A stretch of 64,000 nt of DNA from Psammoneis japonica (lineage: Eukaryota), in NCBI GenBank assembly GCA_008632985.1, contig QPGO01000101.1, positions 1-64,000 on the forward strand, given 5' to 3'. Shown piece after piece: positions 3,990 through 64,000 of the stretch. Below the pieces are notes generated by a model. That model was not told where the DNA came from and did no database searches. It worked only from the letters and a program-made list of their open reading frames with translations. The position numbers and the translations under genes are program-made. Every line of letters starts with the position of its first letter. The stretch's first letter is position 1.

Positions 3990-6753
3990 CTGTCACATTC
4001 GGCGTCAGTGTAAGGTCGCATGGCAACATAAGGCAGGCCAGCCTTGATGTCAATGGGGATGACATAGCCATCAGGAGTGGCGGTGCGTTGCAAGCCGTTG
4101 GGCACCTTGACAGAGCGATCGTTGACATCCTGTTTGCACCATTCGAGCTGGCCGCAGGAGTGGATGGTCTTGCCCTTTCCCGTGCATGCGTGCTGATGGA
4201 GGATGGCGATGACGGGACCACGCTGGGTCTCAATGACGGCACCAGCGGTGACAATGGGGATGTCCACCAATTGATGATCGTCAATGTGCAGCACGCGACT
4301 GTCACACACACGTTTGTGATTGCACATCATTTGCACGTCAATCGCGCCACAGTCGTGGATGCGTGCAAAGGACAGAACGATCACACAGAGTTGATCGGAT
4401 GTCGAGAATTGCAAATACGATCGATTGACGATGTTGACATCTTGCGTGTCAACAGCAATCGCACCCGGACAATCTGTTGTCACGAACACATTCTCTGAAA
4501 GGCCTTTTGTCTGCAGAAGCAGCGCAGAAGCTTCAGGCCATTGAAAACTCGTTCGGAGAAACCAAAAATCACAGAGCAAAATCTAATCTCACAATTTCCA
4601 CTTTTCGCACACTGTTCTACTTTCGTTTGCACTCGTTCTTCGAGCACAGTGCAAATGCCCTGAACGTCGACTTGGCGAGAGGTGCGTGCGATGACGCGGA
4701 TGTCGTCGCCAGCAATGCCGCCGTTGGCCCCACGATCGACTAGAGCGCCAGTGCGTGTGGAGCGATGAGCAGAGGCAGAGCAAATGACATTGTGGTTGTC
4801 AACGCGGTGGCAAGTGCGGCCGTCAAGTTCTGTGTCATCTGCAGAAGCTGGCGGGGTAGAGGAAGCGGCGGATGGCCCCGGTCGACTGGCATTGGGGGCT
4901 TGGTTAGGAGACAACAGATGTTGCAGATCACCGGGTGGCAGTGGCTTGCGCTTGGTGAGGTGCGCCAGGATGGGATCATCCGAAATGGCGTCCACATGTG
5001 CAGCGGAGTCACCACAGTCAGCAGGAGTCGTGTTGGACAAGTTGACATCACCGTCACTCCCAAGGTGTTGGTCGTGAAGGTTGGCCGTAACAGACTCATG
5101 GCAGCCACTGGCTCGCGGGTTGCGGGGAGGCGGACGAGAGTGCTCAAGGATGATCGCCTTGGAGGAATCGGGCAACGAATCCCAGAGCCGTTGGTGGTCG
5201 GGAGGGAGACGTCTCCATTGGACACCAGTGAGGCTGGGACCACGGGTGCAGGCAGCATTGGCTTGAAGGACGTCAATGTCGCTGTCAATGTCGCAGAACA
5301 CATCGTCGGACGGTTCCTCGGAGTGGACGTCGTGTGCGCACATGGCGCGTCGGGGAGCTCGAGGTGTTGTCTTGGGTTGAAACGTGCTGTCGCACTGAGC
5401 TGCCGCGGAGAGGAGCAAGCCACAGTGTTGATCGTATGTGAGGCTCTTGCCACTCTGCGTACGATGCTGATCAGCTTGGTTCTTGACAGCACGAAGTTCC
5501 TCGACAGGGTGCACGGCATTCTCGAGCATGACGCGCTTCTGTCCTTCAGAGAAGTGGTCGCTGGCGGGGATGAGTGCCTCGCACTTGCGCAACTGATCTT
5601 GCCAATGAAGGATGAACCCGTGGGTCGGACCTTTCCAAGTGCCATCACCAAGACGTGCGGTGGTGAGGTGCGTGAGCAGGGTGGAGGACTCGACAGATGC
5701 ACGGGTGGAGGCAAGCGCGCATTCAGACAAGGAGCGGCAGACGGTCTGTGCGTCAGAGGACCCCACATTTTCGCGAATGAGAGCCTTGCCCTTGTCAGTG
5801 AGAAGGATGCGTTCGAAGACGGCGAACATGCACTTTTGCTGTTCAGCAAAGAGCAGTTTGTCTTCGGGGCTGGTCGGTTTGTACGACGAGTCTAGAGTGC
5901 ACTCGACGTCTTGGGCACGGGCTTGTGCCACAAGTGAGGTGTGCCAAGTGTGCCACTGCTTGTCGGATTTGAGAGCCGTGAAAGCGGTGGGATCACGCTT
6001 GATGCCTCGCTTGAAGTCTCGCACCGGGTCGCGTGCCTTGGTCGGGTTGGTGACATGTGGAGGTGCAAGGGGTGAGCTGCCGATGGACAGAGAGGACATG
6101 CAGTTCGGGCTGAGGCGGCAGGCAAGGAACTCGTCATGCATGAACAAAGAGGAGTCGTTGGCAACGTCAAGACCTTTGTGTGCTTTGACAATGTACAGGC
6201 TAACTAGTGCTGCTAACATGTTCTTATAACCACGGGGCAAAGGGATTACATTGGTGCCGTTGTCGCACTCAAGCGAGTCGATTTGGGACGGCATGAACGT
6301 GAATGGTTCCTGATGCGAGTCCGTGCCGTCTTGGGCCAAAGCCAAACGAAGAGGACTCCCAGCACCTTGGGCAAGCACGGTTCCAACAACGTGCTCGAAA
6401 CCATCGGTTTGTTGCTGACGAGTGAGAACCATGGCAGACAAAAGTGGTGTCAGGACAATCAATTCTGGTTGGGAAGCGAAGGTGGACTCGAAACTTGGGT
6501 GAGAACAGACTTGACTTGAAATGGACTTGACTTGAAATCTTGAACTATCTTAAAATCAGAAGTCGCCGGGCTTTGTTATCCCGTTCGTTGTCAAGTGCTA
6601 AACTTCCTGTCCGGACCGTAGAGTTGTGCCGGCACGTCCGAACCCGCAGCCAGTGGTGCTTTGGGTTGCTTACGAGCGGAGTAGCGGGTTGTAAACCCCT
6701 GCAGGCAAGCTGACCAGAGGTGGACAAGACCCCCGAACCGTTCTTATTTTACA
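3990..6753 (-). mobile_element. truncated diatom Ty1/copia (CoDi-like) retrotransposon: gag plus protease region, TpA-mutated
   Basis: ORF 4480-6462 has RDFKRGIKRDPTAF, GFILHWQDQLR, MLENAVHP and the protease motif ALVDRGANGGIAGDD. It resumes after an insertion as IDDHQLVDIPIVTAGAV...GKGKTIHSCGQLE...GLPYVAMRPYTD and breaks near 3990. The 5' boundary is approximate. Confidence 0.8.
4287..4653. mobile_element. solo LTR nested in the copia protease region, with 4-bp TSD
   Basis: 367-bp insert TGCA...TGCA flanked by AATG (4283-4286 and 4654-4657). Removing it restores ...VDVQG-I-DDHQLVDIP... Confidence 0.75.
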
Positions 6754-8356
6754 TCGGTTGGATTTCCCGATCAGGCTGGCCAGTTGACGCAGGCGTCAGG
6801 CGCTGTGGACGAACGAACAAACGCGGGAAAGCACCCTCGCCCCAACGCAGGCTGTAATCACGGCTGCTTGCTCTCACAGTCATCCTCGTGGACCTGGCAG
6901 AACTGTAGAGCACCAGCAGTCCGGGGTAGATCAGGTGCAATGGACTCGGTGTGCTTGTAGAGTGGTGGCAAAACCGCAGTCCGAAGAGTGGGTACAGGTT
7001 CTTGGCCGTGAAGATGTGTATATGTGCACATGTCTTCAGCGACGAAGATCCTTGAACATGTGGGGTTCTTGACCTTTAACCGATGAACAGGTGTGTCAAG
7101 GGATGAGGATCAAGGATAGACTTGGATGTGACCGTTGAATGTATGTCTTCAGCGATCAAAGGCAGTGTGATCAATCCAGACATCCAGCGGTAAGGAGACT
7201 TGACGGTGACATTAACTTCCTGCCGATGCCCTGGTGTTGAATGCGCGTAGACTTGCCGATGTATGTAGAACACATACGGAGGTCCACGTAGAATTGAAAT
7301 AGCGTCGTTGGTAAATCAACGACGACGATGGCGGTTGCTCAATGGGTTGACAATGAGCAAGACTGTTAATCTGACAGAAATTGAAGGCAAATGGCAAGAA
7401 TTCAAACAATGACTCCTTGCTGCTGTCTAAACAGCAGATGAGTCTCCGCTCAGAGACCGTTGCAGGAGCCAAAAGACGTGCAAGTCGGTGTGATCGGGCT
7501 GCTGTTGTTGTTCTTGTGAGCCTTGTGGCTCGAAAGCAAACTACATCGCGCGTGAACGCGCGGAACTAAAGCACACAAAACTGTGCGCGGTAAACTGAAC
7601 AGCGCGCGATGCTTCGCGCGCATCCAAATCCTGTTCAAATCCTGTCACTGAAAGATGCAAACATGATCTGAATCGCCGCACCCAACTCCCCAGAGTGGCA
7701 GGTTGACTGTGTTCTTCCCACCCTCCTCCACTGTTCCCGTCTTGGGCCAAAAGTTGTCATCGTGTCGATGGATCGATGCAAATGAACAGTTTTCTTGGAG
7801 AGTCTAATCGCGTTCCATCAGTTTCTGGGTGAACGTAATTTTGAATTCAATGATCACATTCAGCACTAAAGATGTAAATGCAATGTAATTTTAAATTTAA
7901 CAATCACATTCAGCACTTGAGATTTTTGCAATTTTTGTGCCAAATTGTTTGTGGAAGCACGGGATGTCAAAGAAGCCGCCATCACTTCGCACAACTTGGC
8001 ATTTCCACAACACATTGACGGTCACAATCAGCAACACAGTTACATCGAATCGGCTTTGTTCTACATTGAAACATGAGAACAGAGAAATGCTGCCGAAAAG
8101 AGACCCACAACAGTTGACTGATTTCTTCGTGGAACACTTGAAATCTCTCTTTCAAGTGGACTCTTTGGAAGATGTTCCGTTGAACTCAAAAGGAAGCATC
8201 GATTTGAGCACCGAGCAATGTGACAATCTAAAAGACGCTGTCAAGCGGTTTGCTGACATCAATGATGAGAGGAAAGTTGGCAAAAAAGTCGTCAGCAAAT
8301 TGAACACTCTTTTAGGAAGAGACCAAGAACGTCAGTGTGTTGCAAACCAGTCAAAA

Positions 8357-8590
8357 GAACAAGTCGAACGTCGACGTTTTCGAGAACGTGTGGCCAACAT
8401 GGATCCAGAACCAGCCGAACATTGACGTGCTCGACATCGTGTAGCCAACATGGATCCAGAACAAGTCGAACGTCGAAATGCTCGACATCGTGCAGCCAAC
8501 ATGGATCCAGAACAAGTCGAACGTCGAAATGCTCGATGTCGCGTGGGAAACATGACAGCAGCACAAGTCGAACATCGAAATGCTCGATGT
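8357..8590 (+). repeat. 51-bp coding tandem repeat, about 4.5 copies (EQVERRNARHRAANMDP)
   Basis: Units start at 8357, 8408, 8459, 8510 and 8561, within a decayed ORF beginning near 8088. Confidence 0.85.
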
Positions 8591-8935
8591 TGCCTTTGTT
8601 GCGCGATGAATGCAGCCTTTTGCCTCATTTCAAGACACAGGAGTCGCCGAAATCAGATCTTGCATGGCAGTCAATGCACCAGTGCCACTGCACGAATGCA
8701 ACTTGATTGTAAAATCGAGTTTTGGGAGCAATTTCTGGTTGATCTCATTCGTGGCAGATGTGGATCAATGCCAGAGCATGCGGAATTTTTGTCTTCATTG
8801 AACACTTTGAACAAAATAGAACACTGTTTCAAAAGCATTGGCGAGTGTTGCTCGTTTCTCATGGACTCTCTTGCGATTCATTGCACTCACTGTTTTGTTT
8901 TCTTCTGTTGTTGTTTTGTTTTCCTCTGTCACAGG

Positions 8936-11860
8936 TGATCCGCTTGAGCTTCATGAACGAATTCCCTGCTCAAAATTGGGCAGGCTCCTTGGGTGTGGAT
9001 GTTTGCTTTGGCACTTTGTCAACTCCAAGATGCTGACCAGGAGTGACAATGGAAATGGAGGACATGGCGCCAAGACTTCTGCTGCTGCAGTGAAGAAGAT
9101 TTGTGAAGCCATTCGTGATTTCAAACGTTCTGGCAGAGAAGCAAACACTGCCGAGGACGCCAACACTCTTGCGACACCTGAATTAATCCAGGGTCTCATC
9201 AATTCCGAGGAAGGCATCAACAACAACTTCTCCGCAGATGACGTCGAATTGCTTGTGGAAGATCTGGGTTTCCATCAAACAACTTGTCATCACCTGTGGG
9301 ATGAGTCATTTTTAGAGGACGAACATGGTGTTGGTCGAGCGATCTTTGACGAAATGTGTGCGGCTGAGGTTGCTGATGTGTGCAACCCCAACTCTGTCAT
9401 TGCACCCGACATCGATGCTGATCAAGAATTGCAACAAGATCTCTTGTTGGACGAAGCGACATTGGCTCTGGAAATCGCCGAAACTGGTGCAACCCTTCCT
9501 CATGATGCTGATGAGCATGAAGATTTGACTCCCACTCAGCCCGACGATGACACTCAGCCCAAGAAGAAGCGAGTGGCTAAGAAGAAGGCGACCAAGAAAC
9601 CAACCAATGCCAATGACGACACTCTGTCTGACGACGACACTCAGCCCAAGAAGAAGCGAGCGGCCAAGAAGAAGGCGACCAAGAAACCAACCGATGCCGA
9701 TGCCAACACTCTGTCCGATGACGACACTCAGCCCAAGAAGAAGCGAGCGGGCAAGAAGAAGGCGACCAAGAAACCAACTGATGCCGATGACGACACTCTG
9801 TCCGATGACGACACTCAGCCCAAGAAGAAGCGAGCGGACAAGAAGAAGGCGACCAAGAAACCAGCCGATGCCGATGACGACACTCTGTCCGATGACGACA
9901 CTCAGCCCAAGAAGAAGCAAGCGGGCAAGAAGAAGGCGACCAAGAAACCAACCAATGCCGATGACAATGCTCTGTCCGACGACGACACTCAGCCCAAGAA
10001 GAAGCGAGCGGGCAAGAAGAAGGTGACCAAGAAACCAGCCGATGCCAATGACGACACTCTGTCCGACAACGACACTCAGCCCAAGAAGAAGCGAGCGGGC
10101 AAGAAGAAGGCGACCAAGAAACCAACCGATGCCGATGACGACACTCTGTCCAACAACGATGCTCAGCCCAAGAAGAAGCGAGCGGGCAAGAAGAAGCCTT
10201 GTGCCAAACCCAAGTCAAAGGGAGTGGCCTGAGCTGAGCCCAAGTCAAAGTGCATGAACAAGAAAAAGGTTGACAATGCTCTCGCACCCAAGTCCACGAA
10301 ACCAGTTGATCTTGATGCAGTCGATCCCCACAAGACCGAGTTGATTTCAGCCAACCCCTCTCTCAAGAAAGCAAATGACTCTTCGGAATCATCACAGATT
10401 TCTGTGGGAACTGCCAAATCCATTGCTGTGATGGAATGCCCGATGGAATTTGATGACGACTTGTTGGAGAGTGAACCCGAAGAAATTTTCGCACACATCG
10501 AGTCGAGGCGCACGTCCAAGAAACTCATTTCTGTGTCCAAGAAGAACCCCAAATGGAAGCGAGCGGGTGAGAAACCATCCGATCCAGATGCTCAACCGAA
10601 GAAGAAGCGAGCGCCCAAGAAAGGCACCGATCCCAATGATGACACTCAGCCCAAGAAGAAGCGAGCGATCAAAAAACCAATTCCTCAGAAGGCCGAGTTG
10701 AGCACTGCTGCCAAGAAGACCAAGAATTCTGCTGAGAACCCCGTGGCCAAGAGGAAGCATGCTGTGGCCAAGAAACCAGTTGACTCCGATGCCCATGCTG
10801 ATGCCGACACCCATGCCGAGCCCAAGAAGGCTCAGCCCCAGTCAAAGCTCAGGTCGAAGCATGCGAGCAAGAGTGTTCCAGCTTCCAAGAAACTTGTTGA
10901 TTGCGATGACAGTGCTCCGCCCAAGAAGAAGCGAGCTGTTTCAAAGAAGGGTCAACGCAAGCAGTGGTCTCCAAAGGATGCGACCCATTCTTCTCGCTTT
11001 GCTCTTGGTCATGACGATGTAGAGTGTTCCGAGTCCTGTGTGGCAGATGTCCTTTGCGATCGTGACCACTCCGACAAAGACCCTTTTTGTCATTCTGATG
11101 ACTCCAAAGGTTCAAAGGATTGTCAACAAGCCATTTGCACCTCATTGGTGGATGTGTCCAACTCACACAATGCCACGACACCCTTCACTTCCCACAACAT
11201 GGACAATGGATTCATTTCCCTGGAAGCTCCTCATTTGCCGGCTGTCACTCCAGCTACAAATTCATCTGTTTTTCCAGCTGTTTCTGTTGTCTCAGCACAC
11301 GCATCCATGCCTGACACGTCGGAAGATGAAAATGACGAGAACATTCTCCCAGTCCGTCTCACCTCTTTGGAACTGCAAGAGCATGAATTCGAAGAGTGGG
11401 AACGTAAAGACAAGGAGAATCGGAAGAATCCGAACTTTTTCGGATGCAAAAGCGAGAGGTGGAAGAGTCTGGTTGCACATGTCCCAGTCACGACACAAGA
11501 GCAAGAGGTGCTAGAATCTTGTTGCATGCACTTGCCACGAGCAATCGCAAAAGTTGATGAGTTGTCCATTTGTTCAAGAAATTGAGCTGCAATCAGGACA
11601 CTCTGAGACTCACTTTGTTTGTCTGCCCGATTAGACTCATTCGTTGCCATTTGCCTGACAGGCAACAATTCAACAACAGCGTCAGAACATGTGTGTTGCA
11701 CGGATCAAGAACGAAAAAATGGAAAAACCCAACATTGCCGACATGACTAGAAGCGCAAAGCACTGGTGTGGCTGCCCCACTGTCTTGCCGACGCAAATCT
11801 GGCAGTTGTCTTGTGCTGCCCCTCGAGTCAACACCGCGACCTTGGTCCAGTTGCACACTT
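8936..11860 (+). pseudogene. decayed large low-complexity protein gene (Lys/Asp-rich repeats, NLS-like PKKKR motifs), possibly transposon-borne
   Basis: ORFs 8838-10232 and 10254-11585 are in the same frame, separated by TGA. They are essentially Tyr-free and Cys/His-enriched. Confidence 0.5.
9541..10195 (+). repeat. 87-bp coding tandem repeat, about 8 copies (DDDTQPKKKRAGKKKATKKPTDADDDTLS)
   Basis: gacactcagcccaagaagaagcgag recurs every 87 bp. More degenerate copies continue to about 10940. Confidence 0.9.
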
Positions 11861-11866
11861 TGCTTG

Positions 11867-12032
11867 TCTAGCGCACGTAGTGCGCGTTTATTAGACTGTG
11901 CATGCGTGTGCACGTGTGTGAGGTGTAAGTAGAATATACGTGGAATTAATCTAGCGCACGTAGTGCGCGTTTATTAGACTGTGTATGCGTGTGTACGTGT
12001 GTGAGGTGTAAGTAGAATGTACGTAGAATTAA
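11867..12032. repeat. 83-bp tandem duplication containing a GC hairpin (gcgcac-gta-gtgcgc)
   Basis: Copies 11867-11949 and 11950-12032 differ at 4 positions. Confidence 0.9.
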
Positions 12033-13769
12033 CACTGAGTGAATTGACATGCGGTGGATTTTCGGCCGGCACACAATTTACGTGGTCTACATGAAAGATA
12101 AATTTATTCTGGTCTGTGAGGATTTTACATATCATTAACATTTCTTCTGTCTTCAAAATATACATACCCAAATTCAAAAAAGTGAGGAACACCCCGAAAC
12201 ACATTTTAGAATCTGGATAAAAAAAATTTTTATTTAACGGTCCGAACAGGGTCGCCCCGAAGCGCTTCTCGAAATATCTTTAGATTGAATAAGGTAAAAT
12301 ATCTACTGTTGGCAAAACAGAGTCACCATGGGCAAAATAGATCACCGTCCTTCGCGCGCAATGACAGCGGCACGATAACGCACAACAACACCATGGCGAG
12401 CAACGCGAACGCCGTTCACTTGTCTGCCAGCTGGTATTTCCAGATAAGATCAAAGCTGTTGGACAATGTTTATGCACTGCATTCATGGGTCAAGTTGGGT
12501 TCCTTCTCGTTGCTTGTTGTCGTGTCACTTTACAACGTCTTGACCCACGCCGTGTTTTTTGCTCTTTGTTGCTTCTGCTCGATCGCGCGCCACCGAACAG
12601 CTTTTCCTGCAGGGCATGGCTAGTTGCTCATCACATCGAACCCAAACGTGCGCGACCAGCTAGCCCCACCCCGGCTAACTCACAACTTTTGTAAACAACA
12701 GTCATTTTGTCGGCAGGGATTGACAAGATCCAGCTTCCTCCTCGAAAGAACAGCACACCGAGCAACACACTCACCGCTTTTGTGTTTTTGCCGTGACCCG
12801 TGGCATTGCATGCATGCAACACAACAAAATCTTTACCCAAAACATTCTTTCTGGAATGTGGCAGAAGGTCGACAGCCCGTTTTGGGTCCGTCGCCATTCC
12901 CGACTGCGCATTGGCTGCAGATTTGTGGTGCACTCCGTTTTCATTCAACGGCATGTTTTGTGCAGCATGTCCACTGCCTGTGGTGATGTCACCCCTTGGG
13001 TGGTCACCAGCATCTTCCGAATGAGACTTCAACATGTCATCAACCAATCCCTTGATGTCCAACTTGGACAAATGAGGTGCAAAACAATCACGCCAAAAAT
13101 TGCTTTCATGGTCAATGTGTGCAAAGTCGCCAGGGTCAATGTGCGTCCCTTTTGTTCAATTGACAGGAACACCTTGTTTTTTTGCCAGTTTGTTGAGCTT
13201 CCCACGATCAGAGCGGGGATTTTGGCAATGCGGTTCACTGTGTCCGTCCCATGACATGTGCCCCCCAGCTTCCGATGCCTCTAATCTGTTGACAGATTCG
13301 GTCTTCCACTTTTTGGAAAGCAATCCATGTCTTTTCACATTCTCAGGTTTGAACTTGAATGGTGCTTTTGGTTTCTCAAATGCTAAATCTGGTTGTTTTT
13401 CACCTGGCCATCGAGGCCTTGGAGCGTCGCCATGCCATGGAATGCCCTGCACACCCATTTCTTAAAATCTTTGAAGTTCCGCAAGTTGTTTCTGCCCAGT
13501 TTTCACAACGGATCTCACTCAAAGGCAAGACCTCAGCATGACTGTCAATGCAAACTCGTTCTTGTGGGCTCATGTCAAGTTGCTGCAACAAGTTTGCAAT
13601 GCGTTCTAAAGACATTTCACTGATGATGTGCAATCGAGCCAATGCACGTCGACATTCGACATAGTTGGCTGCACGTTGTCGAGCACGTCGACATTCATGT
13701 CTGCTTTCAGCTTGTTCTTCCAACATGTCCTCAATGTGATTTCGTGCACGTCTGTGTTCGGCTTGTTCT

Positions 13770-14386
13770 TCCTCGCCATGATGCACGTCCCAGTCCAGGA
13801 TGAGCATTTTTGAGGCACTTTTCCTGGTCAGCAGAGATTTTGCCACGACCGCCACCGTGTTGATGAGACAACAGCTGCCGCAATGTTCCGCATGGGCATG
13901 ATGCCCGGGGGGTCGTACGAGACAAAAGGAAGTCGCAGCTCTCTTGCCAACAAGTTGATGTGATGCTTCTAGACAAAGACTGATGTTGCAGAGAGCCACC
14001 GACAAAGAGTCTTCACAAAGGTGGACATCTGACTTTCCTTGTGGGATGACAAAGTTGCAGCTCTTTTCTGCTCCACAGACTTGACATGTCTCGAAGTCCT
14101 TTGCGTTTTCGAATGTACACAAAGCGCAGTTCCACGTCTCCATGGCTCTGCATCCGGTGCGGAGCTGCTCCAAATGCTCTGCAGAATGCAAGGCCAGGGC
14201 TTCTGCTTCACTTTTCCATCGAATGGAAAGACTCGTGTCATCTGGAGCATGGCATTGCTGCCATAGACCTTGACTCTGGAGTTCCTGTGCGATGGCCCAA
14301 AGTCGATCGGCACACTCATTCATCTTTCCGTCATGGCGTTCATGGAGAGAATTGCACCCCAGGAGGACACAGGATGAATGCGACAT
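13770..14386 (-). pseudogene. histone deacetylase (class II-like) fragment with a RanBP2-type zinc finger, truncated after DVHHG
   Basis: HERH...E..DRL, WNCALCTFENAKDFETCQVC, VRPPGHHA, ILDWDVHHG. It is then fused to unrelated Arg/Glu repeats. Confidence 0.75.
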
Positions 14387-16688: not shown

Positions 16689-17103
16689 TTCATGTCCACA
16701 TCCACATGTGGCGTGGATGTGTCATCTGCTCTTAAAATTTTAATTTTGGGTTTGTTGCTGTCAGAGTTGTTGAGGCATGTCAGCTGCGTCAATGCAGGAA
16801 ATTTGAAAATTTGAAGTGCGGTCTCGCCCCACAATTTTTTTCTTGCCATCAGCCGCAAGAGAGATGTGATCAAGTTGTGCTGTGCAAATGCACTGGACAT
16901 GGCAACCCGACACCACATTCAGCTCTTGCTGTCTGTTTTTTTTTTAAATCACAACATGTCAGAGGAGTCGTCAAAGAAAATGACACCAGAGTGGGGCAGA
17001 GTTTGGAAGCAGATCACTGCCATGTTGCTCATCGTGATCGTCTTGGCCAACGCGTGTGCCATCATTGCCAAGGAAAACAACAATGAACACATCAACACCG
17101 TCC
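16689..17103 (+). repeat. hypermutated direct copy of the promoter and 5' coding end of the gene at 19567 (partner 19289-19738)
   Basis: Colinear alignment, including the shared ttgaaaatttgaagtgcggtctcgcccc. SEESSKKMTPEWGRVWK corresponds to LEESSKKTTTEWGRVWK. Confidence 0.9.
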
Positions 17104-22012: not shown

Positions 22013-22572
22013 GGTTGAGGGGGGAGAAAACACTGAAAACCACGCTGCAATCTGTTTTGTGAGAGTTGTGAGTTGTGAGACGATGGCGGGTACGAAGTGG
22101 GCAAAGTTTTTTGTTTTTTCACAAAAAATGTTGATAAATTTTGAAACATTTATATGACCTTCAGAAGAGTATGATTCGCAAAAATTTAAAAATCAATGAT
22201 ATAAATAAGCGCTAAATACCTAATAATAAAATTTCAACTATCAAACCACATACCGTATCAAAAATTTTTATCCTATGCTCAAATATGAACGTGCAGATAC
22301 TAATCAAATATCGAAAATTATTTATTAAAAATGTTAACGACTAAGAATCTTAGATGCTGTATGTCGAAGTCATAACTCACATAAAACGTCAAATTTTAAA
22401 AATTGAGAAACAAAAAAATGAGTCGTACACATGACTGACTGCGAAAGTAAAAATTTGTAAAGCGCTGCGCCAGTCGTGGGAAAGCAATTTCTTTCTCGCA
22501 CAACCGCTTCCATCGTGCCGCTTCTCACTTTTTCTTGTTTAAAAGAATCATACCCCAACCCTGTTTCCAACC

Positions 22573-48880: not shown

Positions 48881-49145
48881 TGTAGATGTCATGCATTGAC
48901 ATTTTGGGCAGGAAACGGTTTGGTGGCAAGATCAAACATCGATCATTGCCACATTTGGTTTGTTGTTTCCGTCTTCTGTCGCGGCGCAAAACGTCCGGCC
49001 GTTGTACGTGCGAATTGAAGGATGGCGTTCTCTACTCGACTCCTCTCCTCCTTTTCCTCTTCTTTTTTTCATCGTGACCGGACACAGTATGAAAATTTCG
49101 ATTTTTCGCGGATTTTCGTGCAACCCCCCATGACCCATAAGCACC

Positions 49146-51620: not shown

Positions 51621-51867
51621 AGTCACGACTTAGACGTCATCTGGTCGCAGAACACGACTGCCAACCAAGACATCGAAATTATTAGCCTCGAGATTCGAAA
51701 TAATTAGCCACCGCTTGAAACGCAAATCGGATTGTAACGAACTTTGTTCATAATCTTTAGACAACGACAGTTGACAACGTCCGTTCACCTCTTTGCTATT
51801 GCTATTGTTACTTCTATCAACGAGATCTCCGTTGACTGCTTGTCAGCCTCGGAACAGTACATCGAGT
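51621..51867 (+). repeat. 5' LTR
   Basis: Aligns without gaps to 58522-58768. Confidence 0.95.
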
Positions 51868-51880
51868 GGTCATGAGCCCA
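51868..51880 (+). promoter_or_regulatory. primer-binding site, half-tRNAiMet type (GGTCATGAGCCCA, cf. GGTTATGGGCCCA)
   Basis: Lies immediately after the 5' LTR and resembles the copia internal-tRNAiMet PBS with a TA->CA change. Confidence 0.6.
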
Positions 51881-51987
51881 ATTTACGCGACGGCGCCGAG
51901 CTTCTAGCCGAGTTTGCCGCCACGGACGCCATTTTTGAAGCAAACCCGGGAAAGCAGCGAGTTTGAAACGCACTTCTCGTCTTCACC

Positions 51988-54100: not shown

Positions 54101-57100
54101 GGGGAACGAGCCAAACTCTTCGTGTTCTGGCTCGCCGCCATGTTTTGGGAGACAGTGTTGCATGTCTGCTTTGCCCCTGTCCCTCATTTGCCTCGAGCAC
54201 TATGCCGCCGACGCAAAATCCCTACCCCTGCATGGGTTCCCAGCATCATGGATGGTCCTTTCCGTGGCCGTCATGGTCTGGACGTCTGTCTACGTTGGTC
54301 AGCTACCCATCTGTCCATTTTCGGACGTACCAAGCCGACTCTCGACCGCTGGCTCCCAGGTCTACGACACAATTGGCGAGCTCGACGACCGCATAGAGTT
54401 AGACGCTGGAGCTCTGTTCGAATGCAACAAAATCAAGGGCAAACAAGTGCTCACCGAGTTCGTCTCGCGCCATCCATCGCACGCGCTCAGCAAGCGACTT
54501 CAAACCCGCTGGAAGCAAGTGTCGCTGCTAGAGGAGTCAGCAGCGGTCGATGAATCAGCCTGTTTCGATTCCTGTGAGGAATTAGAACCTCTCGACGACC
54601 AAAAGTACTTCTTCGACGCCCAGGACAAGCTCTGTCCCGATTTCTTTCGGTTCGACGAGCTCTGCATCCCTCATCACGTGGTTGACACTACGAAATTTCA
54701 AGATCCTACAGCTTTGTTGGAAGAAGCACGTGTCAGTTCAGTTGTGTGCAACGCGTGTGCGCTTCAGGTGCTCACCGGAAAGTCCGAAGCCGAGTTGCCA
54801 GCAACTGACCCGCAAGCTCTCATCGGTCTGTCCGACGAAGACCTGACGGTTGTCATGGACACAGGAGCCTCTTTGGCCATCACACCAGATAAAAATGACT
54901 TCATTGGCCCCATCACGGTCCCCAACAAGCCCTTGAAGTTGGGCGGGATGTCGAGCGGCCTCACTGTTCAAGATGCAGGTGCATGTGGCAAGCGTGAGGG
55001 CGATGGCCAGACTTTTCGCATCATTGTCGACGGAGCAGGAAAGTTGGTCGTGCCACATCATCCATCAAATCACTCACCTGCTGCATCCATGTCAAAGGGA
55101 GCATCTGAAGCTCCCCAGATGAACCCACTTGTTCTCAACGAAGAAAACCAAAACCTGACAGCCGGTCAGAAGCTTCTGTTGGAGACACATGCCAAGTTTG
55201 GTCATTTGAATTTCGCACGAGTTCAATCGATTTTGCACACTGTTCCGTTCCTTTCGAGCCGTTTCAAGTGCGCGTCAAAGTGCGATCTCCCACGTTGCGA
55301 GGCATGTGAACACGCCAAGGGTCACCGACGCTCTCTTGGTTCCACCCGCAAAACGACAGTCCCTGAACGCGACGGGGCCCTTCGCGCTGACCATCTTCGA
55401 CCGGGTCAGGCTGTCAGTGTCGATCATTTTGAATCACGTCTCCTCGGCCGGACTTGCAACTCCTGCAGGAAGGCCACGTCCAAGCAGTGTAAAGGAGGAT
55501 GCATTTTTGTCGATCACGCCTCAGGATGTGTCCAAGTAGAGCACCAACTCGGGTTCTCCGCTGTGGAAACGATGCGGGCGAAGCAAGCGCATGAGAAACA
55601 CGCGTTGGACCATGGGGTCATTGTTCAAGAGTTTCTCACCGATGGCGGAGTGTTCAAAGCCAACAAATTTGTCCAGCATGTTCGCGAACATGAACAGAGA
55701 CTTCGATTCTGTGGTGCCAATGCCCATCATCAGAACGGCGTCGCCGAGAGATCCATCCACAGTGTGTCCAACATGGCGAGAGCGATGTTGCTTCACGCAT
55801 CAATCCATTGGAAGGGGGGGGTTGACAGCTCATCATGGCCCATGGCAGTTTCTTGCGCCACTTGCATCTACAATGTCACCCCCAATGTCCACGGGTGTTG
55901 CCCTGCAGACATTTTCACAGGTTCAATGGTTCCTCATCATCGCCTGCGAGACATGCACACATGGGGTTGTCCGGTGTACGTCCTTGACCCGGTTCTTGCC
56001 TCCGGCAAGAAACTCCCATGATGGCAACCTCGCACTCGCCGCGGTCTTTTTGTTGGCTTGAGTGCAATCCATTCAAGCGAGGTCCCACAGGTCCTGAACC
56101 TACAAACAGGAAGCGTCACTGCCCAGTGTCATGTGGCGTTTGACGATCTGTTCACTGCCGTTCCTTCGATCGAGAGGGAGACGGAACCACCTGACCACTG
56201 GGAGCAACTGTGTCTCGAGCAGTCCATTTGCATCCCATTGGAGAAAGATCAACCGGTTCACCTTGATGATGAATGGCTTGCTCCTCCAGAGCGTCTTCGC
56301 AAGGAACGAGAGGCAGCTCGAGAGACTCGCACTCGTCAGAATTTCGAGCCTCCGCCTTCGATTTCGGCTGCGGATCAACCCAACTCTCGTCAATCTGACA
56401 CGGATCGAGTCCTGCCTGCGACTCAGGAACCGCCTCCAGTCCCACATGCGACTCAAGTGCTGCCAGAAACCACTGAGCCTACGACAATTCAGCCACCCAC
56501 CGAAAATGGCAACGACTTTCCGCCACCAGAGCCGCCTGAAGCACCTCCCGATTCCACAGCACCTCCTCCTCCGGTCGAACCATCTCCAAGCTCGAACTCA
56601 GAGGGAGCCACAGGGCTGAGACGGTCTTCACGGTCTGCAAAGGGACAGTTTCACTCCACCAAGTTCATCGACGAAGCATTCTTCAGTCCGGCAGAAGAGG
56701 AAACAGAACCGATTGGCCACGGTGCGCAGCTCGCCTGTCTTGCATCACTCGAAACTGATTTTGACAATGGAGAATGCAACATCTACGATCCTAGAGCCTA
56801 CGCAGCATCTAAAAAGATGGCTGATCCCAACATGCCTTCATTGCACAACGCCCTAAAAGGTCCAGATGCCAAAGAATGGATCAAGGCGATGAAGATCGAG
56901 GTCAACACGCTCATTTTGCGTCGAGCTTGGGTCGCAGTCGAACGAACTCCAGACATGAATGCACTGCCTGGGACTTGGGTTTTTAAACTCAAGCACCTGC
57001 CCAATGGCACGCCATTGAAGTTCAAGGCACGGCATTGCGTTCATGGTGACTTGCAGAAGGAAGGAGTCGATTGTTTCGAAACTTGTGCGCCGGCAGTCCA

Positions 57101-58514
57101 ATGGTCCAGCATTCGGCTGCTGCTCACGACTGCACTCAAAGAAGGATGGACCACTCGACAGGTGGATTACACCACAGCATTCTGTCAAGCTGACATCACC
57201 AAAAAGGTCTGCGTCCAGCCTCCGAAGGGTTTCACGCCGAAATCGGGTTTCAACATGGTGCTGAGACTCCTGAAGGGACTCTACGGACTCAAGCAGTCAC
57301 CCAAGTGTTTTTGTGAGAAGCTGCGAGATGGCTTGCTCGAACGCGGTTGGGCAGCGTCCGCCATCGACCCTTGTTTGTACTTCAAGAAGGGCATGCTGTG
57401 CGTGGTGCACGTTGATGATGCAGTGTTCGCTGGAGCGTCCGCCAAGGCTGTCGAGGAAGAGATGCGAAAGCCAGGGGTCGCCGACAGCGAGCATCGACAC
57501 GCATTTGACCTTAGAAACGAAGGAGAGGTCGGAGATTTCCTCAGAATCAAGATTGAGAAACTGTCCGATGGCCGATTTCGCCTGACTCAACCCGGACTGA
57601 TCAAGAAGGTCCTGCGTGCGGCCCAGATGGAGGATTGCCGTGGAGTTGCTGCTCCGGCTCTACCTGAAGCTGTTGGTGCCGATGCAGACGGCCCGCCCTT
57701 TGACGAACCCTACGATTGCCGTTCTGTTGTCGGAATGTTGATGCATTTGGCAGCGAACAGCCGGCCAGACATCGCACATGCCACGCACCAAGCAGCTCGG
57801 TTTTCGTTTGCTCCCCGAGCGTCCCACTCTGTTGCAGTGAAGAGGACACTCAGACACCTCAAAGCCACCTCCTCCGAAGGTCTCATCTTGAAGCCGACTT
57901 CAGACGATCGTGTTGATTGCTACGTCGATTCGGACTTCGCGGGACTTTTTGGTGTCGAAGATGGCCAAGACCCAATTTCAGTCAAGTCCAGGACTGGATG
58001 CCTTGTTTTCTGCTCTGGCTGCCCGCTTGTCTGGGTGTCCAAGCTGCAGACTCTTGCAGCCTTGTCCACTGTGGAGGCGGAGCATGTCGCCCTGTCACAG
58101 GCTGTGCGCGATCTCATCCCTCTACGTGAAGTTCTCAAGGAGCTCAACCACCACGTTTTCGGAAAATCTGACCGCCGTAACCCTGTCACGACTCACTCCA
58201 AGGCTTTCGAGCTCGCAAACCAAGGCACCGATGACTCGCCTGTTGAGCAGAGTGTCCCACCTGTGTCCGTTGTGTACGAAGACAATGCCGCGTGCCTCAA
58301 GTTCGCACGCATGCCCAAACTGTCTCCACGAACCAAACACATTGGCACCCCGCATCACTGGTTTCAGACCAAAGTCGAACAATTGGAAATCGACATCCAA
58401 CCTGTCAACACCCTCGAGCAACCAGCCGATCAATTCACCAAGGGCCTGCCTGCAGACATGTTCCATGCAGCCAGACTAGCTCCAATGGGATGGCAATTTC
58501 TCTCTGTCGGTTGA
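54054..58514 (+). pseudogene. pol (protease, integrase, reverse transcriptase, RNase H) with one in-frame TGA at 56019-56021
   Basis: VMDTGAS; HAKFGH...CEAC; VSVDH...FLTDGG...HQNGVAER; KFKAR.C..GD.Q, LYGLKQSP, VHVDD; CYVDSDFAG, ALSTVEAE, YEDNAAC, RTKHI, ADQFTKGL. Confidence 0.92.
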
Positions 58515-58521
58515 GAGGGAG
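58513..58521 (+). promoter_or_regulatory. polypurine tract
   Basis: GAGAGGGAG directly before the 3' LTR. Confidence 0.8.
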
Positions 58522-58768
58522 AGTCACGACTTGGACGTCATCTGGTCGCAGAACACGACTGCCAACCAAGACATCGAAATTATCAGCTTCGAGATTCGAA
58601 ATAATTGGCCACCGCTTGAAGCGCAAATCGGATTGCAACGAACTTTGTTCACAATCTTTAGACAACGACAGTTGACAACGTCCGTTCACCTCTTTGCCAT
58701 TGCCATTGTCGCTTCTGTCAACGAGATCTCCGTTGACTGCTTGTCAGCCTCGGAATGGCACATCGAGT
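58522..58768 (+). repeat. 3' LTR (heavily TpA-mutated)
   Basis: Aligns to 51621-51867. Confidence 0.95.
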
Positions 58769-59379
58769 TGACATGAAACTGGTTTGATGGGTTCGTCGCA
58801 ACATTGCATGGAGCGTTCCTCATCTGTGCCACAAGCAGGTTTTAGAGTCAAGAGTCAATTGTTGAAGCACGAAGAGCACGCAAGCCCAGAAAGTGCAAGG
58901 ATGCAGCAACGCAGGTGGCGGATGCAGTCAAGAACCCAAGACTCAAGGATCTGCCGGCACAGCAGTGAGCAGGCAGAAACTGCACTGAAGACGGTGCTGC
59001 GAACGGAACCACAAGCAGAGGTGAAAGCAAGAAGATGAGGAACGACAACATTCTTGACATCATCAGGGAAAACAACAAGATCAGTGAAGGGAAGAAGTGA
59101 GAGAGCAGAGGAGTGTGGGGCCTGCTCACTCCAAAACAACTGTTGACTCCAACACCTGTCAGAGTGTGCTGAATCTTTTTGTGGGAGATTTGTGATTTTA
59201 GAAATCCAAACCCTGGTGCCAAATGCAGTTGTTCCAACACAACCATTTTAGAAACACCACACTGACCATGCGAGAGAACAGCGGTGGAGACAGAGCCACA
59301 CCCAGCCTGTCTGCAATGGCAACAAAGACGGACGAGATGAGCAGCATCTCAACAAAGACATTCAAGAACAAGAGTGAGT

Positions 59380-61380
59380 TCAAGAAATGCCCACAAAACA
59401 CCAACCAAGGTCAAGGGCTGCATGGAGGAGCTGTGTGACTGCACACATGACAAGATGGGCCGCAAGCGGCAGCAAGCTGGGTGCCTGCTGCACAAAGACT
59501 GCGCAAGAAGTTGGGTGACTGCATGAAAGTTGCACCATTGAGCAGCTGGAAGAGGTGGGTGTCAATGCAGAGAAGACCTCAGCACCTCCAAAGGAAAACA
59601 AAGGAAATGTGGACAAGGTTGACCAAGAAATGTGGGCAGAGGAGATCAAAAGCTTCATCAGATTGAAACAAAAATGCCGACAAAACATGAAAAAGGAGCA
59701 CACACGCAGATTTGGAGCCAGTGCAGCAACACCATGAGATTGGTGGTGGAAGCTCACAACAATTGTGTTCAAGTTGCAATGAGGAGAAAAATGCCAGCCA
59801 CTGGTGGGTTGATCCATGTGGCTGTGCGGCATTTGTGCAACTCCCGCCAAGGCCAACAACTTGACTTGACACAAGCATGGTGCAAGAGGTTCCAGGCATC
59901 ATCAAACATTGTGATGTTCATTGGCAGGGAGGTGGCTCACCATGAGATGCTGCAGAAGAGCAGCCTTTGCAAAAAAATCCCACCAGATGGACAAGGCAAT
60001 GTTGGCACAGAAGAGAACTGCATGAGCAGAGGCCAAGGAAGAACATCTGGCCACCGCCTGTGTGTTCATTCTTGGAGCAGCAGTCCGAAGGTGATGTGGG
60101 GTGTGATCAAAACCCCAACAAGTTTCCACCCAACAGGGGATGACAGATGCCCAAGGACCGTGGTGCAAGCATGTGGCATGCTGTCAAACTGGTGCAGCTG
60201 GTCCAACATGCAGCACGCCACATCAACAGGCAATGACTGTGCAGCATCGCCAATGTCAACAGAGCCTCTTCCAAAGGTGGGGGGGGCTGATCTGCAGACC
60301 TCATCACATGCTGTCTTGCAACAACAACACTCCATTGCAAACTTTGTGGAAGTGGCAGAAAGTGGGGAACTTGATGATGCCAATGACCTTGGTTTCCAGT
60401 TTTGCACAGTGACCAAGGAAGACAATGAAAGGGGATCAGCTGACTTTCAGCTGACTTTCAGCTGACACACCAGGCACAAGCAGTCAGATGATGGTGGCAT
60501 GCACCAAAGCTGGACATTGACCAGCAACCAGCCCATGTGCAACACATTTGTGAGTGCAGGCATGCTCCAGAACATCCAGCCAAGGCAAAAGAGAAATGTC
60601 AGGTCACTTGCAACAACCATGAATTCAACACATTCATCATCCACAAGAACAGCAGCAGCACCCAGAAATTCAAAGAGCCCCCATCAGGTTCACATTTCTG
60701 TGACACCACATCACCAGAGCATCAAGCACAAGCAGCCATCACACTGGTCAATGGTGGTCAACACGGTTGCAGGAAACAAGGCCACATGCTTGGCTTGCCA
60801 TGATGTCAAGCAGGCCCAACCAGCAAGAACAATCCAGAATGAAGACCATGACACCAAATTGCAGGGGCAATCACCCTCTGACCAACCAGGAACACCCAAG
60901 GCAGACACTTCTTTGTCAGCCTTGAGTCAGGATGCCACATCAACTTCTGGAGCTGCGGAAGCCATGAATCCAGGCACTCCTGAGAGGTGTGGGGGATGAC
61001 ATTGCTGCTGCTTGTTTCAGCAATGCCAGCTGTGCTGACAGTTGTCATGTGATGCAAAGGCCCTGCACTGGGATGATCATTTTTGTGCCCCTTGCCCCAA
61101 TCTTTTTGCACTTGGCATGGCAGAACACTGTTGCATTTTCAACCTTTGAGTTGGAGGTTGTTGTGATGAAGACAATCAATGCATTTTGCTGCACACTGTG
61201 GATGGACCCACTGGTCTCTTCTGAGACAATGAAGCCACATTTGAGAACCCCAAGTCAAACAGAACCTGCACTTGAAAAAAAGTGCAACACAGCTGCACAT
61301 GTCAATGAGCTCATGCAATGCAGGTGGCTGGAACATCACAGGTTGCATGGGGAGGAGGACACAGAAATTCAGCCAATGTT
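59380..61380 (+). mobile_element. very decayed copia-like retroelement remnant
   Basis: VDQEMWAEEIKSF...AHTQIWSQCS (gag-like), LTSNQPMCNTFVSAGMLQNI (cf. LLDNQST..F.N...L.NI), VNTVAGNK...DVKQAQ.AR.IQ. Confidence 0.5.
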
Positions 61381-62249
61381 CTCACCAAGTTGGTGCCTGG
61401 GCTGACTCATCAGTTGCATCTTAAACGTGACTGGCAGCATCATTTTCAGCAATCACAAACCCATTCTCTTGAAAGACAGAAAAGCAAAGGACAAATGCAA
61501 TGGACACACAGTTTCCATGGCTGCCTCTCATGGGTTGCTGTTTTTGCAGTGTTCATTTTGCTTCTCATCACTGCAGCCAGAGAAGAAACAAGGGGCTGGC
61601 CATTTGAGCAAACAGCAGATCAACAAACCCTGTCCATGCTCTTTGAGATGGGGACAAAGAACTCTGGGAATCTAGAAGCATGAGAGTGCAACATGCAGCA
61701 GATGGGGTCATGACTTGGGGTGCATGCTCTCCAAGTTAGGATGAAGCAATTGTGGCTGGTGTTGCAACCGAAATGAAGTTGGCAGCCCAGCTGTGTTCCA
61801 GCAGCAAATGGACAGATCTTCTGCTCTTCTTGTCTCTCAACAACAATGCTGACCACAATTGGAAGAACGCCTTTGATGTCAAGCACAAGTCGCAAAGTGG
61901 AAATGTCATGCCAGTGTGGAACAAAGGCGAAGAGTTCATGTGCTGCTTCTTCACATTGGATGGTGATGCACAAAGCAAATGTTCTCAGTTCAAATTTGAT
62001 GGGAAAAAAGTGGCACCAATGATTGATGATTGTTTTTGGTGTCCAATCTAAACTCAAACAGAAGAGACTGGAGTGGCTTTTTGCAGCCTGTGAACAGAAA
62101 AACAAGTTGAGCTCTTCCAGAGTGGCGCGCCACACATTTTCCAGCTTTGAATGGAGTGGTGAATGTTCTGTTGCACCACCAAGAGAAATCTCAGTCAATG
62201 TGAAACAGCTTGCACTTTCTGGCAGGTGTGGGTGGATGTGTCAACAAAT

Positions 62250-62720
62250 TGAGTTGCCCTGGGGTTCATGATGCCTGCAAAAAAAAAAAACCATCACAGG
62301 TCCCATTGTGCACTCCAACACCCCAGCCTTCTTTTGCACCAATTCAAGAACCCTTGGTGCATCAAACAGCTCTCCCAACTCATCCACCAACAAGACAAAC
62401 CACAGGGGAAACCCCATCCAATTCACCAACAACCTTGATGCCTGCCCAGGATCCAACTTTGACACCAACAAATTTCTCCAACAGCCCAAACACTTGATCC
62501 TGTGGCAAGAGCAACATTGAGCCCAACAAGTTTGCCAACCACATTGCAAACATTGAATCCTGTGTCACCTCCCATGCTGTCTGTGACTCAGGGACCAACA
62601 CCCATCCCTTCAAACTCAACCATGCCCATGCCAAATTCAAACCCCTGCTTCATTTTAAACACCTTGTCCAACACAAAAAGAGCCTCACCTGTCCCAGCAA
62701 GGCATCTCACTCTGGCACCA
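62250..62720 (+). pseudogene. relic of a Pro/Thr-rich (PT-repeat) secreted protein
   Basis: TPTPQPSFAP..EP..PTHPPTRQ.T..PSNSPT..PT, SPTSLPT. Confidence 0.4.
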
Positions 62721-63039
62721 GCTGATGCACCAAAGAAGGCCCAAACACTGCCAGAAGTGAGTGACAATGACAAGAAAATTGAAGTGGCTTCAGAACTGGG
62801 GTCCTTGGGTGCTGGCAGGAATGCCAAAACAACAATGAATGCAAATCTTCAATGTGTCAGAGTGGTGCTTGTGTGGCATGGTCTGCTTGCTTCCCAATCA
62901 AGCACAAAACTGGCATGCTCTCTTTGACAAAGACAGAGCCAACAATCAACACTGTGTTTGATGCCTCTGCTTTTTTGACTCAAGCGGCCACCAAGCTTGG
63001 CACAATCAAGTTGACCAGACATGCAGCATGATGCAAAGC

Positions 63040-63370
63040 TGCACCATGTTCGCGGAGAAGATGGAGGTGCTCAATGTCTTTGTGGTGGATCTGTTTGAGT
63101 TGGACTTGTCATTTTGTGATTTTGGATGCCATGGAATTGATCGACTTTTGTGCTGTGACACAAAACGCACCCACGATTTAGGCTGCAAATGCTTCCCTGT
63201 TGGAACCTGTCTTCAAATCGTCCTCGTCATTCACAACTCAAGGCGGTGTGGTTGCGCAGGTCATGCCAATGAAAATGTTGCCACTGCAACAATGCATCCT
63301 GCCTCCTCTCTGGTGTTGGCACATGAGCTTTGTCATTCACTCTCTGAACCAGGCAATGAGTGCCATTGTG
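63040..63370 (+). pseudogene. relic metallopeptidase fragment (M64/IgA-peptidase-like)
   Basis: LNVFVVD...FGCHGIDRLL...IVLVIHNSRRCGCAG...VATA....LVLAHELCHSLSEPGNEC, cf. N...YGGAG...HE.GHS...LADEY. Confidence 0.5.
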
Positions 63371-64000
63371 GGCGTGGCAATGACTCGGCCTCACGGGGAA
63401 GGCAAACAAGCCAAAAGGTTATGACAGAGTGAAATGCATCCCTGGTTGCACAAACAAGGCCTTTTTTGGTAAAGGCGATCCAAGCGGACTGCCCAACCGC
63501 TAAAGTGTGAAAGCTGTTTCTATTTAAAATGATTTGAGGGTCTTGTCACTAGCTTGTCAATTTTGTTTTGGCCAAAAGTTATCATCCAGCATGTGTCGAA
63601 TTGCACTGCTCTCCTAACACCCCGTAGAGTCTTTGGGACTACCCTTGGGTCTAAAGTCAACGACGCTCGTGTGTTGGCCCCGCAAGATTTGAGATTGCCG
63701 AGAGATAGACAAAAATCATGGCGGGCAATTCAAATCCCGCGTCTTGGAGGGAATCCTTGCCACGCACCACGGCGAGTTGAAAGCCACCGTTTGTCGCGGC
63801 AAATGAAATGATCCAAGCCAGAGCTTCTCCGTCTGACGACGCTTGGCAAAAGGAAAGATAACACTAGTTGGAGAGATTTGATAAGGTTAGGAAAAAATAC
63901 AGCCCGCGTAACTCAAACGATTTCTCAAAACTGTTGCACGACGAAAGTGTTTGGAGCAGCAGAGCACGCGAAGAAGGCGTCTTGCCGAGGGAAATGCGTT

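Follow-up and report, generated by a model that had tools for sequence, protein, structure and literature searches.

Here, we analysed the first 64,000 nucleotides, read on the forward strand, of contig QPGO01000101.1 of the diatom Psammoneis japonica (NCBI GenBank assembly GCA_008632985.1), a stretch to which we refer as the window. About two thirds of this DNA consists of blocks from which the dinucleotide TA has been nearly erased, and ancestral TA is found mostly converted to TG or CA in dead gene copies, in one of the two long terminal repeats (LTRs) of a copia retrotransposon, and in the conserved tyrosine codons of two proteins of transposable elements (TEs). The explanation that we favor, to which we assign a probability of roughly 0.6, is that a mutator acts on TpA at the DNA level in delimited, probably silent stretches, with adenine deamination as the most likely chemistry. 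Such a mutator would turn 5′-TA-3′ into TG or CA, i.e., cause a T:A to C:G transition on either strand of the diatom nuclear genome, most likely through deamination of the adenine following T to inosine, which is read as G. An earlier reading of the same DNA, made without database searches (the sequence-only reading), had attributed the depletion to a targeted mutator or a mutagenic base mark acting on silenced chromatin; our analysis confirms the depletion as real and partly supports that interpretation as a whole.

Depleted blocks were called with a two-state hidden Markov model (HMM) on TA density across the window, and depletion is expressed as the observed/expected ratio (o/e), the TA expectation being taken from base composition. 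For the window as a whole, TA has an o/e of 0.27, and TG and CA of 1.50 each. The HMM delineated seven blocks, at 4066-6193, 7899-11868, 12693-19261, 23751-29269, 34124-37508, 40986-49956, and 51906-63419, the borders of which agree with those of the sequence-only reading within ~100-250 bp, with the exception of the end of block 6. We set this end at 48883 instead of 49956 because positions 49134-50009 are occupied by an intact gene for a secreted beta-helix protein that is merely low in TA. The seven blocks together (40,983 bp) contain 151 TA against ~2,541 expected, namely, 11/99, 16/250, 24/396, 18/360, 6/235, 11/550, and 65/651 for blocks 1 to 7, respectively, and the longest run devoid of TA, in block 6, extends over 2,367 bp (44773-47140). 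The TA o/e of the blocks is ~0.03-0.11 compared to 0.45-0.79 in the inter-block segments, and four intact genes tested outside the blocks encode proteins with 2.9-5.1% Tyr, in line with the claim that the interleaved genes are normal; likewise, the estimate of about 20 TA in 24000-29000 is close to the actual count of 17. The TG:CA ratio per block, 0.81-1.25, indicates that both strands are affected. Depleted DNA comes in two types. In type A stretches (4066-6193, 7899-11868, and 51906-58776), TA is lost and CpG is normal (o/e 0.80-0.95); in type B stretches (blocks 3-6 and 58777-63419), both TA and CpG are lost (CpG o/e 0.16-0.40), and TG+CA rises to ~1.8-1.9. The CpG depletion of these five stretches is an addition to the sequence-only reading, which had not reported it.

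The direction of the change can be read from dead gene copies that lie next to their live counterparts. In block 3, positions 16686-17104 (plus strand) are a dead duplicate of the neighboring gene's promoter and 5′ end, 76% identical to the live counterpart at 19286-19739 (plus strand), which spans the upstream region and the start of open reading frame (ORF) 19567-20475 in a segment with a TA o/e of 0.59. None of the 22 live TA is kept in the dead copy: 10 read CA, 10 read TG, and 2 are otherwise changed, against a background of 28 changes at 294 other sites (9.5%). The changes at TA sites are almost solely transitions, and AA steps are mostly kept (26/30). At the 30 CG of the same pair, 11 are kept, 9 read TG, and 9 read CA, that is, 19 (63%) are lost. 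In block 4, positions 23782-24040 (plus strand) are a dead copy of the 3′ end of a glycosyltransferase-61-like gene, 75% identical to the live 29561-29817, and here 8 TA have become 4 TG, 1 CA, and 3 other dinucleotides, again with none kept. Pooled over three DNA alignments, 42 ancestral TA yield 17 CA, 16 TG, 1 CG, 3 kept, and 5 other. Thus, 34 of the 42 polarised sites conform to the single T:A to C:G change at TpA on either strand that had been put forward from the sequence alone, and the observation that TG and CA outcomes coexist on one strand is borne out by their nearly equal numbers.

The copia element provides an independent comparison, given that two LTRs are identical at the time of integration. 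The LTRs (51621-51875 and 58522-58776, both plus strand) are 93% identical, with 13 TA (o/e 0.65) in the spared 5′ LTR and 3 in the 3′ LTR, which was hypermutated after integration. Among the 17 differences, 11, at 10 sites, are changes from TA in the 5′ LTR to TG, CA, or CG in the 3′ LTR, one further site reads CA in one LTR and TG in the other, 4 differences lie outside TA, and none is at a CpG. Counted by site, 11 of 14 TA were hit in the 3′ LTR compared to 1 of 14 in the 5′ LTR (Fisher p 3e-4), and the ratio of the mutation rates at TA and at other sites is ~87, albeit from small counts. The interior of the element has a TA o/e of 0.16, with 55 TA left, and a CpG o/e of 0.91. Because LTRs that were identical at integration differ at 11 TA sites, the conversion of TA to TG or CA acts on integrated DNA, and, both strands being hit about equally, the conclusion of the sequence-only reading that the change occurs at the DNA level rather than through strand-specific RNA editing holds. 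As an alternative for the LTR asymmetry alone, the process might be tied to transcription of the element itself, U3 of the 5′ LTR lying outside the transcription unit.

Protein comparisons yield the same polarity. Conserved Tyr columns were taken from 22 copia and 21 gag-like close homologues. The copia reverse-transcriptase (RT) ORF (56022-58511, plus strand; Pfam RVT_2, 1e-36) reads HVDD in place of the catalytic YVDD box, and its 15 conserved Tyr columns, compared with the 22 homologues, contain 5 Cys, 4 His, 4 Tyr, 1 Trp, and 1 Val; all four Tyr that are kept are encoded by TAC and none by TAT. Block 1 (type A, CpG o/e 0.95) lies inside a truncated gag-like ORF on the minus strand (long ORF 4483-6549; homology ~3986-6432) that falls, together with 67 relatives, in a family without a Pfam entry and, by eye, looks like a retroelement gag/protease. 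Its 12 conserved Tyr columns contain 7 Cys, 2 His, 2 Tyr, and 1 Phe, and its Tyr content is 0.6% compared to 2.3-5.3% in all 67 homologues. For the two TE proteins combined, the 27 conserved Tyr columns read Cys in 12 cases, His in 6, Tyr in 6, and another residue in 3, so that Tyr is kept in 6 of 27 columns, whereas other conserved residues are kept in 475 of 572 (Fisher p 3e-11). The replacement of Tyr by Cys or His, on which the sequence-only reading had relied, is thus found in 18 of the 27 columns. Together, the pooled polarised TA sites, the LTR pair, and the Tyr columns indicate that the process is mutational, restricted to transitions, strand-symmetric, and post-integration, and support the conclusion that the TA depletion is mutational and not selective. 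The mutator would accordingly act after integration, approach saturation, and outpace background substitution by about two orders of magnitude; by inference, it would also destroy TATA-like promoter words and AATAAA-like signals.

CpG decay follows a different schedule. The type A stretches and the LTR pair show no CpG loss despite full or advanced TA loss, and in the older dead gene copy at 16686-17104, with its 9.5% change at other sites, all TA and 63% of CpG are gone. TA is erased quickly and before CpG, which decays more slowly. Within block 7, where a type A part made up of the copia interior and 3′ LTR (ending at 58776) gives way to a type B relic (58777-63419), the CpG o/e drops to 0.05-0.22 over 59001-63000, and this relic is older than the adjoining copia element. 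CpG decay resembles what ordinarily becomes of methylated transposons in diatoms, whose TEs have been reported to be methylated (PMC9998398). It would be a separate, slower process, as expected of cytosine methylation, that acts later on the same stretches and leaves the same TG and CA products. Among the CpG that survive in type B DNA, GCGC is 3.2-fold enriched and TCG-containing words are at 0.65-0.71, except for TCGC/GCGA at 1.06, a weak hint of a flanking-base preference from which we draw no conclusion.

The limits of TA loss are sharp and can lie inside elements. At the left border of block 4, TA-bearing sequence extends to 23750 and TA stops there; in the gag-like fragment, the last ~80 bp (3986-4065) keep 3 Tyr codons in the printed alignments, whereas the 12 columns upstream carry the 7 Cys and 2 His mentioned above. 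Both duplicates have live partners that remain untouched, and the live paralogue at 19286-19739 keeps 22 TA in 440 bp. Between blocks 2 and 3 lies an undepleted repeat (11869-12692; TA o/e 0.79, CpG o/e 1.24), for which the summed contig word depth in X1, a public sequencing run from which contigs were built with exact 31-mers, is ~5,092 compared to ~55-65 for single-copy sequence, i.e., ~90 times the single-copy value. Possibly, this repeat inserted recently and has evaded, or is yet to meet, the mutator; its 824 bp open with an 83-bp × 2 tandem. The spared 5′ LTR of copia adjoins normal gene-bearing DNA, and its twin, the 3′ LTR, which was hit, adjoins the older relic. Given that live paralogues, the ~90-copy repeat, and the 5′ LTR are all spared, neither copy number nor sequence identity is decisive; position decides TA loss, on a scale of ~100-250 bp. 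Because, in addition, borders fall inside elements, the target appears to be a silent domain rather than repeats, and the locations of the borders point to a domain of the chromatin type. The mutator would work up to sharp borders, even inside an element, and would spare live genes, promoters, and at least one high-copy repeat.

The contexts of the TA that survive in blocks differ from those of TA outside blocks (χ2 120, df 9, p 2e-21). CTAA/TTAG, TTAA, or CTAG account for 51 of 68 survivors in type B DNA compared to 118 of 671 TA in normal DNA, and ATAT together with ATAC/GTAT for 0 of 68 compared to 160 of 671. In CTAA/TTAG, TTAA, and CTAG, both strands read TA followed by a 3′ purine; because survivors are mostly YTAA/TTAR (Y, pyrimidine; R, purine), the preferred site would be 5′-TAY, and the survivors thus suggest a 5′-TAY preference of the mutator. 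Such a target implies that Tyr codons become Cys or His codons, and that TAA and TAG survive better. TadA naturally acts on U-A-C in the tRNA anticodon loop, a site similar to the preference suggested here.

The alternatives can be weighed against this body of evidence. TpA is a palindrome, so that T to C and A to G changes cannot be told apart in the sequence, and the context bias could equally be read as a purine 5′ of T; conceivably, therefore, it is the thymine of TpA in silent DNA that is modified, for example, to 5-hydroxymethyluracil (5hmU) by a TET/JBP-type enzyme, or excised, and then mis-paired or mis-repaired to C. However, nothing in the window speaks for this route; the sole 2-oxoglutarate (2OG) oxygenase ORF (23109-23636) matches 2OG-FeII_Oxy_3 and Oxy_4 and not Tet_JBP. 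Furthermore, 5hmU pairs with A and, to our knowledge, does not yield near-quantitative T to C conversion, which counts against an origin at the thymine, an improbable scenario overall. A homology-triggered process akin to fungal repeat-induced point mutation (RIP), whereby duplicated sequences would be detected, possibly near meiosis, and hit with a specificity for TpA rather than CpA, strikes us as equally improbable. It would draw on the presence, in two blocks, of dead fragments of adjacent live genes, on the repeated nature of TE families, and on the grouping of diatom DNMT4 enzymes with the fungal RIP factor RID in the available text of one study (PMC9998398), but it would leave unexplained why the live partner of each duplicate is untouched, why the ~90-copy repeat lies unmutated between two blocks, and why two LTRs identical at integration were treated differently, with borders inside elements. 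The co-occurrence of TA loss and CpG loss in five stretches might suggest a by-product of error-prone repair, whereby a Pol-eta-like polymerase would introduce A to G changes at WA motifs (W, A or T) while patching deaminated 5-methylcytosine (5mC). In three stretches, however, CpG is normal although TA is fully lost, and between the LTRs there are 11 hits at TA and none at CpG. Errors of Pol eta also affect AA and include many transversions, whereas here AA steps are unaffected (26/30 kept) and TA changes are almost only transitions, which makes the repair scenario quite unlikely.

A-to-I editing of RNA from transposons, made permanent by reverse transcription, would suit the fact that one block is an LTR retrotransposon, and ADAR-type enzymes prefer a 5′ U. 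Yet sense-only changes made before integration are not what we find, because the LTRs differ at 11 TA sites and the strands are hit equally (TG:CA ~1); gene fragments that are not TEs, including an upstream region, are affected as well. ADAR also favors a 3′ G, whereas the surviving TA carry 3′ purines, and we consider RNA editing highly improbable. No more credence attaches to a sequencing or assembly artefact, in which a modified base in silent DNA would be mis-called and the real DNA would still read TA, although the record of run X1 does not give its library type. The run contains 78% of sampled words from 21001-31000, and its contigs span the greater part of blocks 3 and 4, with word depths of ~55-95 that are similar to those of genes. 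In block 3, this depth holds over 14669-19337, and 130-407 is reached over 12668-14668; the moderately repeated segments 12668-14668, 23340-24673, and 26675-28008 and the repeat 28676-29342 account for the higher depths. Pieces of 1.1-2.2 kb differ from the window at 3-12 positions each, and of the 20 differences listed for block 3, 1 restores TA and seven fall on CpG sites. A base-calling artefact is unlikely because the exact 31-mer contigs reproduce the TA-free sequence, which noisy long reads presumably could not do; moreover, intermediate states exist (55 TA in the copia interior, 3/14 in the 3′ LTR), and the Tyr to Cys or His changes at the level of codons fit real substitutions.

Several observations weigh against a TpA-specific adenine deaminase acting in silent DNA. 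Run X1 may belong to the data used to polish the assembly, and may thus not be independent of it. The survivor-context test assumes that ancestral contexts were like those of today's gene DNA, and a direct test of the 3′ pyrimidine on polarised sites, in which 13 of 19 agree (p 0.17), is only suggestive. The one eukaryotic ADAT2 shown to edit DNA, BjADAT2 of amphioxus, prefers adenine in GAA, not TA, and deaminates C at TCG, as described in the available text of the report (PMC10354150). Finally, Tyr-poor relatives were found among 0 of 120 copia and 0 of 67 gag-like proteins in public data, and none of 80 metagenome loci that carry related copia genes shows the Tyr to Cys or His pattern, from which it follows that these relatives and loci offer no second organism. 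Two of the 80 loci are low in TA, L037 (1-4349; TA o/e 0.12, CpG o/e 0.09) and L027 (1-1776; 0.18 and 0.10, respectively), and neither has an excess of Tyr to Cys or His changes in its RT match. The two long ORFs of L037 contain 1.0-1.9% Tyr, and 18 of the 25 TA in these ORFs are in codon phase 0, 17 of them in Tyr codons. This ambiguous pattern would be expected if selection still maintained the element in a host subject to the same pressures, or if TA and CpG were low throughout the host genome; neither locus is counted as a second case of TpA erasure.

What the blocks contain can be only partly recognised. Pfam matches inside blocks are limited to three: the copia RT, the first half of a histone deacetylase, and the last third of a ferrochelatase. 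The dead histone-deacetylase fragment (13403-14419, minus strand; Hist_deacetyl, 2.5e-26, profile positions 3-158 of 298) lies in block 3 (CpG o/e 0.40, TG+CA 1.80) and has 0.3% Tyr, 6.8% Cys, and 6.2% His, a Tyr of HDAC6 pairing with His in the alignment. The dead C-terminal fragment of ferrochelatase (25612-26022, minus strand; Ferrochelatase, 1.3e-23, profile positions 223-315 of 317) lies in block 4 (CpG o/e 0.16) and contains no Tyr in 137 codons, a Tyr of the human protein pairing with Cys. Blocks 5 (CpG o/e 0.23, TG+CA 1.91) and 6 have no Pfam match, and most type B DNA lacks any recognisable homology. The claim that every recognisable sequence in the blocks is a TE or a dead gene copy therefore stands for all that was recognised, which leaves most type B DNA outside it. 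No viral genes were seen among the recognisable block DNA, which consists of copia, the gag-like element, and host-gene fragments. Searches of the window with all proteins collected revealed no further copies of the copia and gag-like families in type B blocks, and comparing the window with itself by tblastx added mostly noise to the pairs that blastn had revealed. Under a transition-tolerant alignment, the dead copies could not be extended past ~420 and ~260 bp, further scores being those of shuffles, so that the blocks are not simple tandem duplicates of neighboring genes.

Block 2 (CpG o/e 0.80), in which no Pfam family passed the cut-off, contains a tandem repeat at 9533-10196 (87 bp × 7.6) that encodes a Lys-rich 29-aa unit, and is free of TA over 9578-11020 (1,442 bp). 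Its ORF 8820-11582 (plus strand; 921 codons, no Tyr, one TGA stop, normal CpG) could be a gene or a relic, because TA-free DNA stays open in several frames. At the edge of block 6 (40986-48883 as trimmed), the intact beta-helix (NosD-like) gene 49134-50009 (plus strand), which encodes a signal peptide, has 13 TA and 1.0% Tyr and may be naturally low in TA or lightly touched by the mutation process. The other edge of this block starts ~110 bp beyond the upper end of the light-harvesting ORF 40420-40875, close to two tandem genes of the fucoxanthin-chlorophyll type (38886-39569 and 40166-40843, minus strand) that are 75.5% identical in DNA and normal in TA. The best matches of the light-harvesting genes are in diatoms (55-64% identity), and the best named match of the copia element is in Fragilaria crotonensis. 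At the start of the window, ORF 2-3343 (minus strand; 1,114 codons, intron-free) encodes a 3′-5′ exonuclease domain, DNA_pol_A_exo1, the domain type of Mut-7/WRN-exonuclease proteins, which function in transposon silencing in animals, a side observation that we do not connect with TA loss.

Comparison with known systems places the process apart from the classical ones. Like the RIP of ascomycete fungi, it is dense, restricted to transitions and specific for a dinucleotide, it kills transposons and duplicated gene pieces, and it leaves blocks of odd composition. Unlike RIP, which makes TpA from CpA by C to T changes and creates stop codons, it removes TpA and can create neither TAA nor TAG; TA is marked as the ancestral state by the live copy of the gene and by homologues with Tyr codons, which is opposite to the direction of RIP. 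Furthermore, RIP hits both copies of a duplicate and all repeats, whereas here the live copies and the ~90-copy repeat are spared. Decay of methylated CpG by 5mC deamination gives TG and CA products, as in the five type B stretches, and in those only; it cannot remove TpA, and CpG loss lags behind (0 CpG compared to 11 TA hits in the LTR pair). The sequence-only reading had drawn both distinctions, from RIP and from 5mC decay, and both stand. As with the APOBEC and ADAR enzymes of animals, deaminase-driven hypermutation would restrain mobile elements; those enzymes, however, act on cDNA or RNA before integration and with strand bias, whereas the footprint described here is in integrated DNA, on both strands, and in non-mobile DNA too. 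The process may serve in defence. The A to G chemistry of TadA/ADAT2-type deaminases and of the adenine base editors derived from them would fit. We know of no natural enzyme that edits double-stranded chromatin DNA at TA, and the ORFs scanned in the 64-kb window include no deaminase domain. Literature searches found no description of TpA hypermutation in diatoms; a mutation-accumulation study of Phaeodactylum reports a GC to AT bias, and the word TpA does not occur in its available text (PMC6604790).

Accordingly, the claim that the process had not been described holds for diatoms as far as our literature searches reach and fails in general, TpA hypermutation having been demonstrated in Bigelowiella natans in the available text of a preprint (Mettrop et al., bioRxiv, 2026; 10.64898/2026.01.13.699255). 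In 15 mutation-accumulation lines of this alga, 231 of 302 new single-nucleotide mutations fell inside two integrated viral regions, and 230 of these 231 were A to G or T to C, all at TpA, with rates of ~6e-7; the type of process is characterised by de novo mutations at ~1e-7 per site per generation, in some cultured lines only. The B. natans genome also contains clusters poor in TpA and rich in CpA and TpG that are enriched in RT and DDE domains, and the authors name an ADAT2 homologue as a candidate. The available text nowhere contains the words 'diatom', 'stramenopile', or 'CpG'. Were the pattern confirmed genome-wide, P. japonica would be the first stramenopile, and represent the second lineage overall, in which hypermutation specific to TpA is known, and what now is a single-species curiosity would become a candidate for a widespread genome defence in marine algae. 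It is possible, although we hold this only tentatively, that diatoms and chlorarachniophytes share an ancient chromatin adenine editor that acts on silent domains of any origin, at 5′-TAY on both strands, until Tyr codons and TA-rich signals are gone; if so, this editor would be the mirror image of RIP across the lineages of the SAR group (stramenopiles, alveolates, and rhizarians) and an unseen, major influence on the composition of algal genomes. There are practical implications as well. TA-free blocks mislead gene callers because they contain long open frames in all six frames, and transposons inside them are hidden from homology searches; and the enzyme, if it is a TA-specific DNA adenine deaminase, would be of interest for base editing.

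The B. natans process and the one described here have the essentials in common: T:A to C:G changes only, at TpA only, with TpG or CpA depending on the strand, in delimited regions, and at rates orders of magnitude above background. They differ in host, a rhizarian in one case and a stramenopile in the other, in the type of evidence, de novo mutations compared to a historical footprint, and in the targets, which in B. natans are integrated giant-virus and virophage DNA, including a silent insert from a nucleocytoplasmic large DNA virus (NCLDV), and here are LTR retrotransposons, unrecognisable relics, and fragments of host genes. Erasure is near complete in the diatom (o/e 0.03-0.11), compared to a Rho of 0.45 in the NCLDV region of B. 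natans. To the B. natans case, the diatom blocks add that the change is post-integration, has borders within elements, is blind to copy number, outruns CpG decay, and seems to prefer TAY. CpG decay, TAY context, and within-element borders are thus features of the diatom case, CpG going unmentioned in the available text of the preprint. The diatom blocks are best classed as another, far more saturated case of the B. natans type of process.

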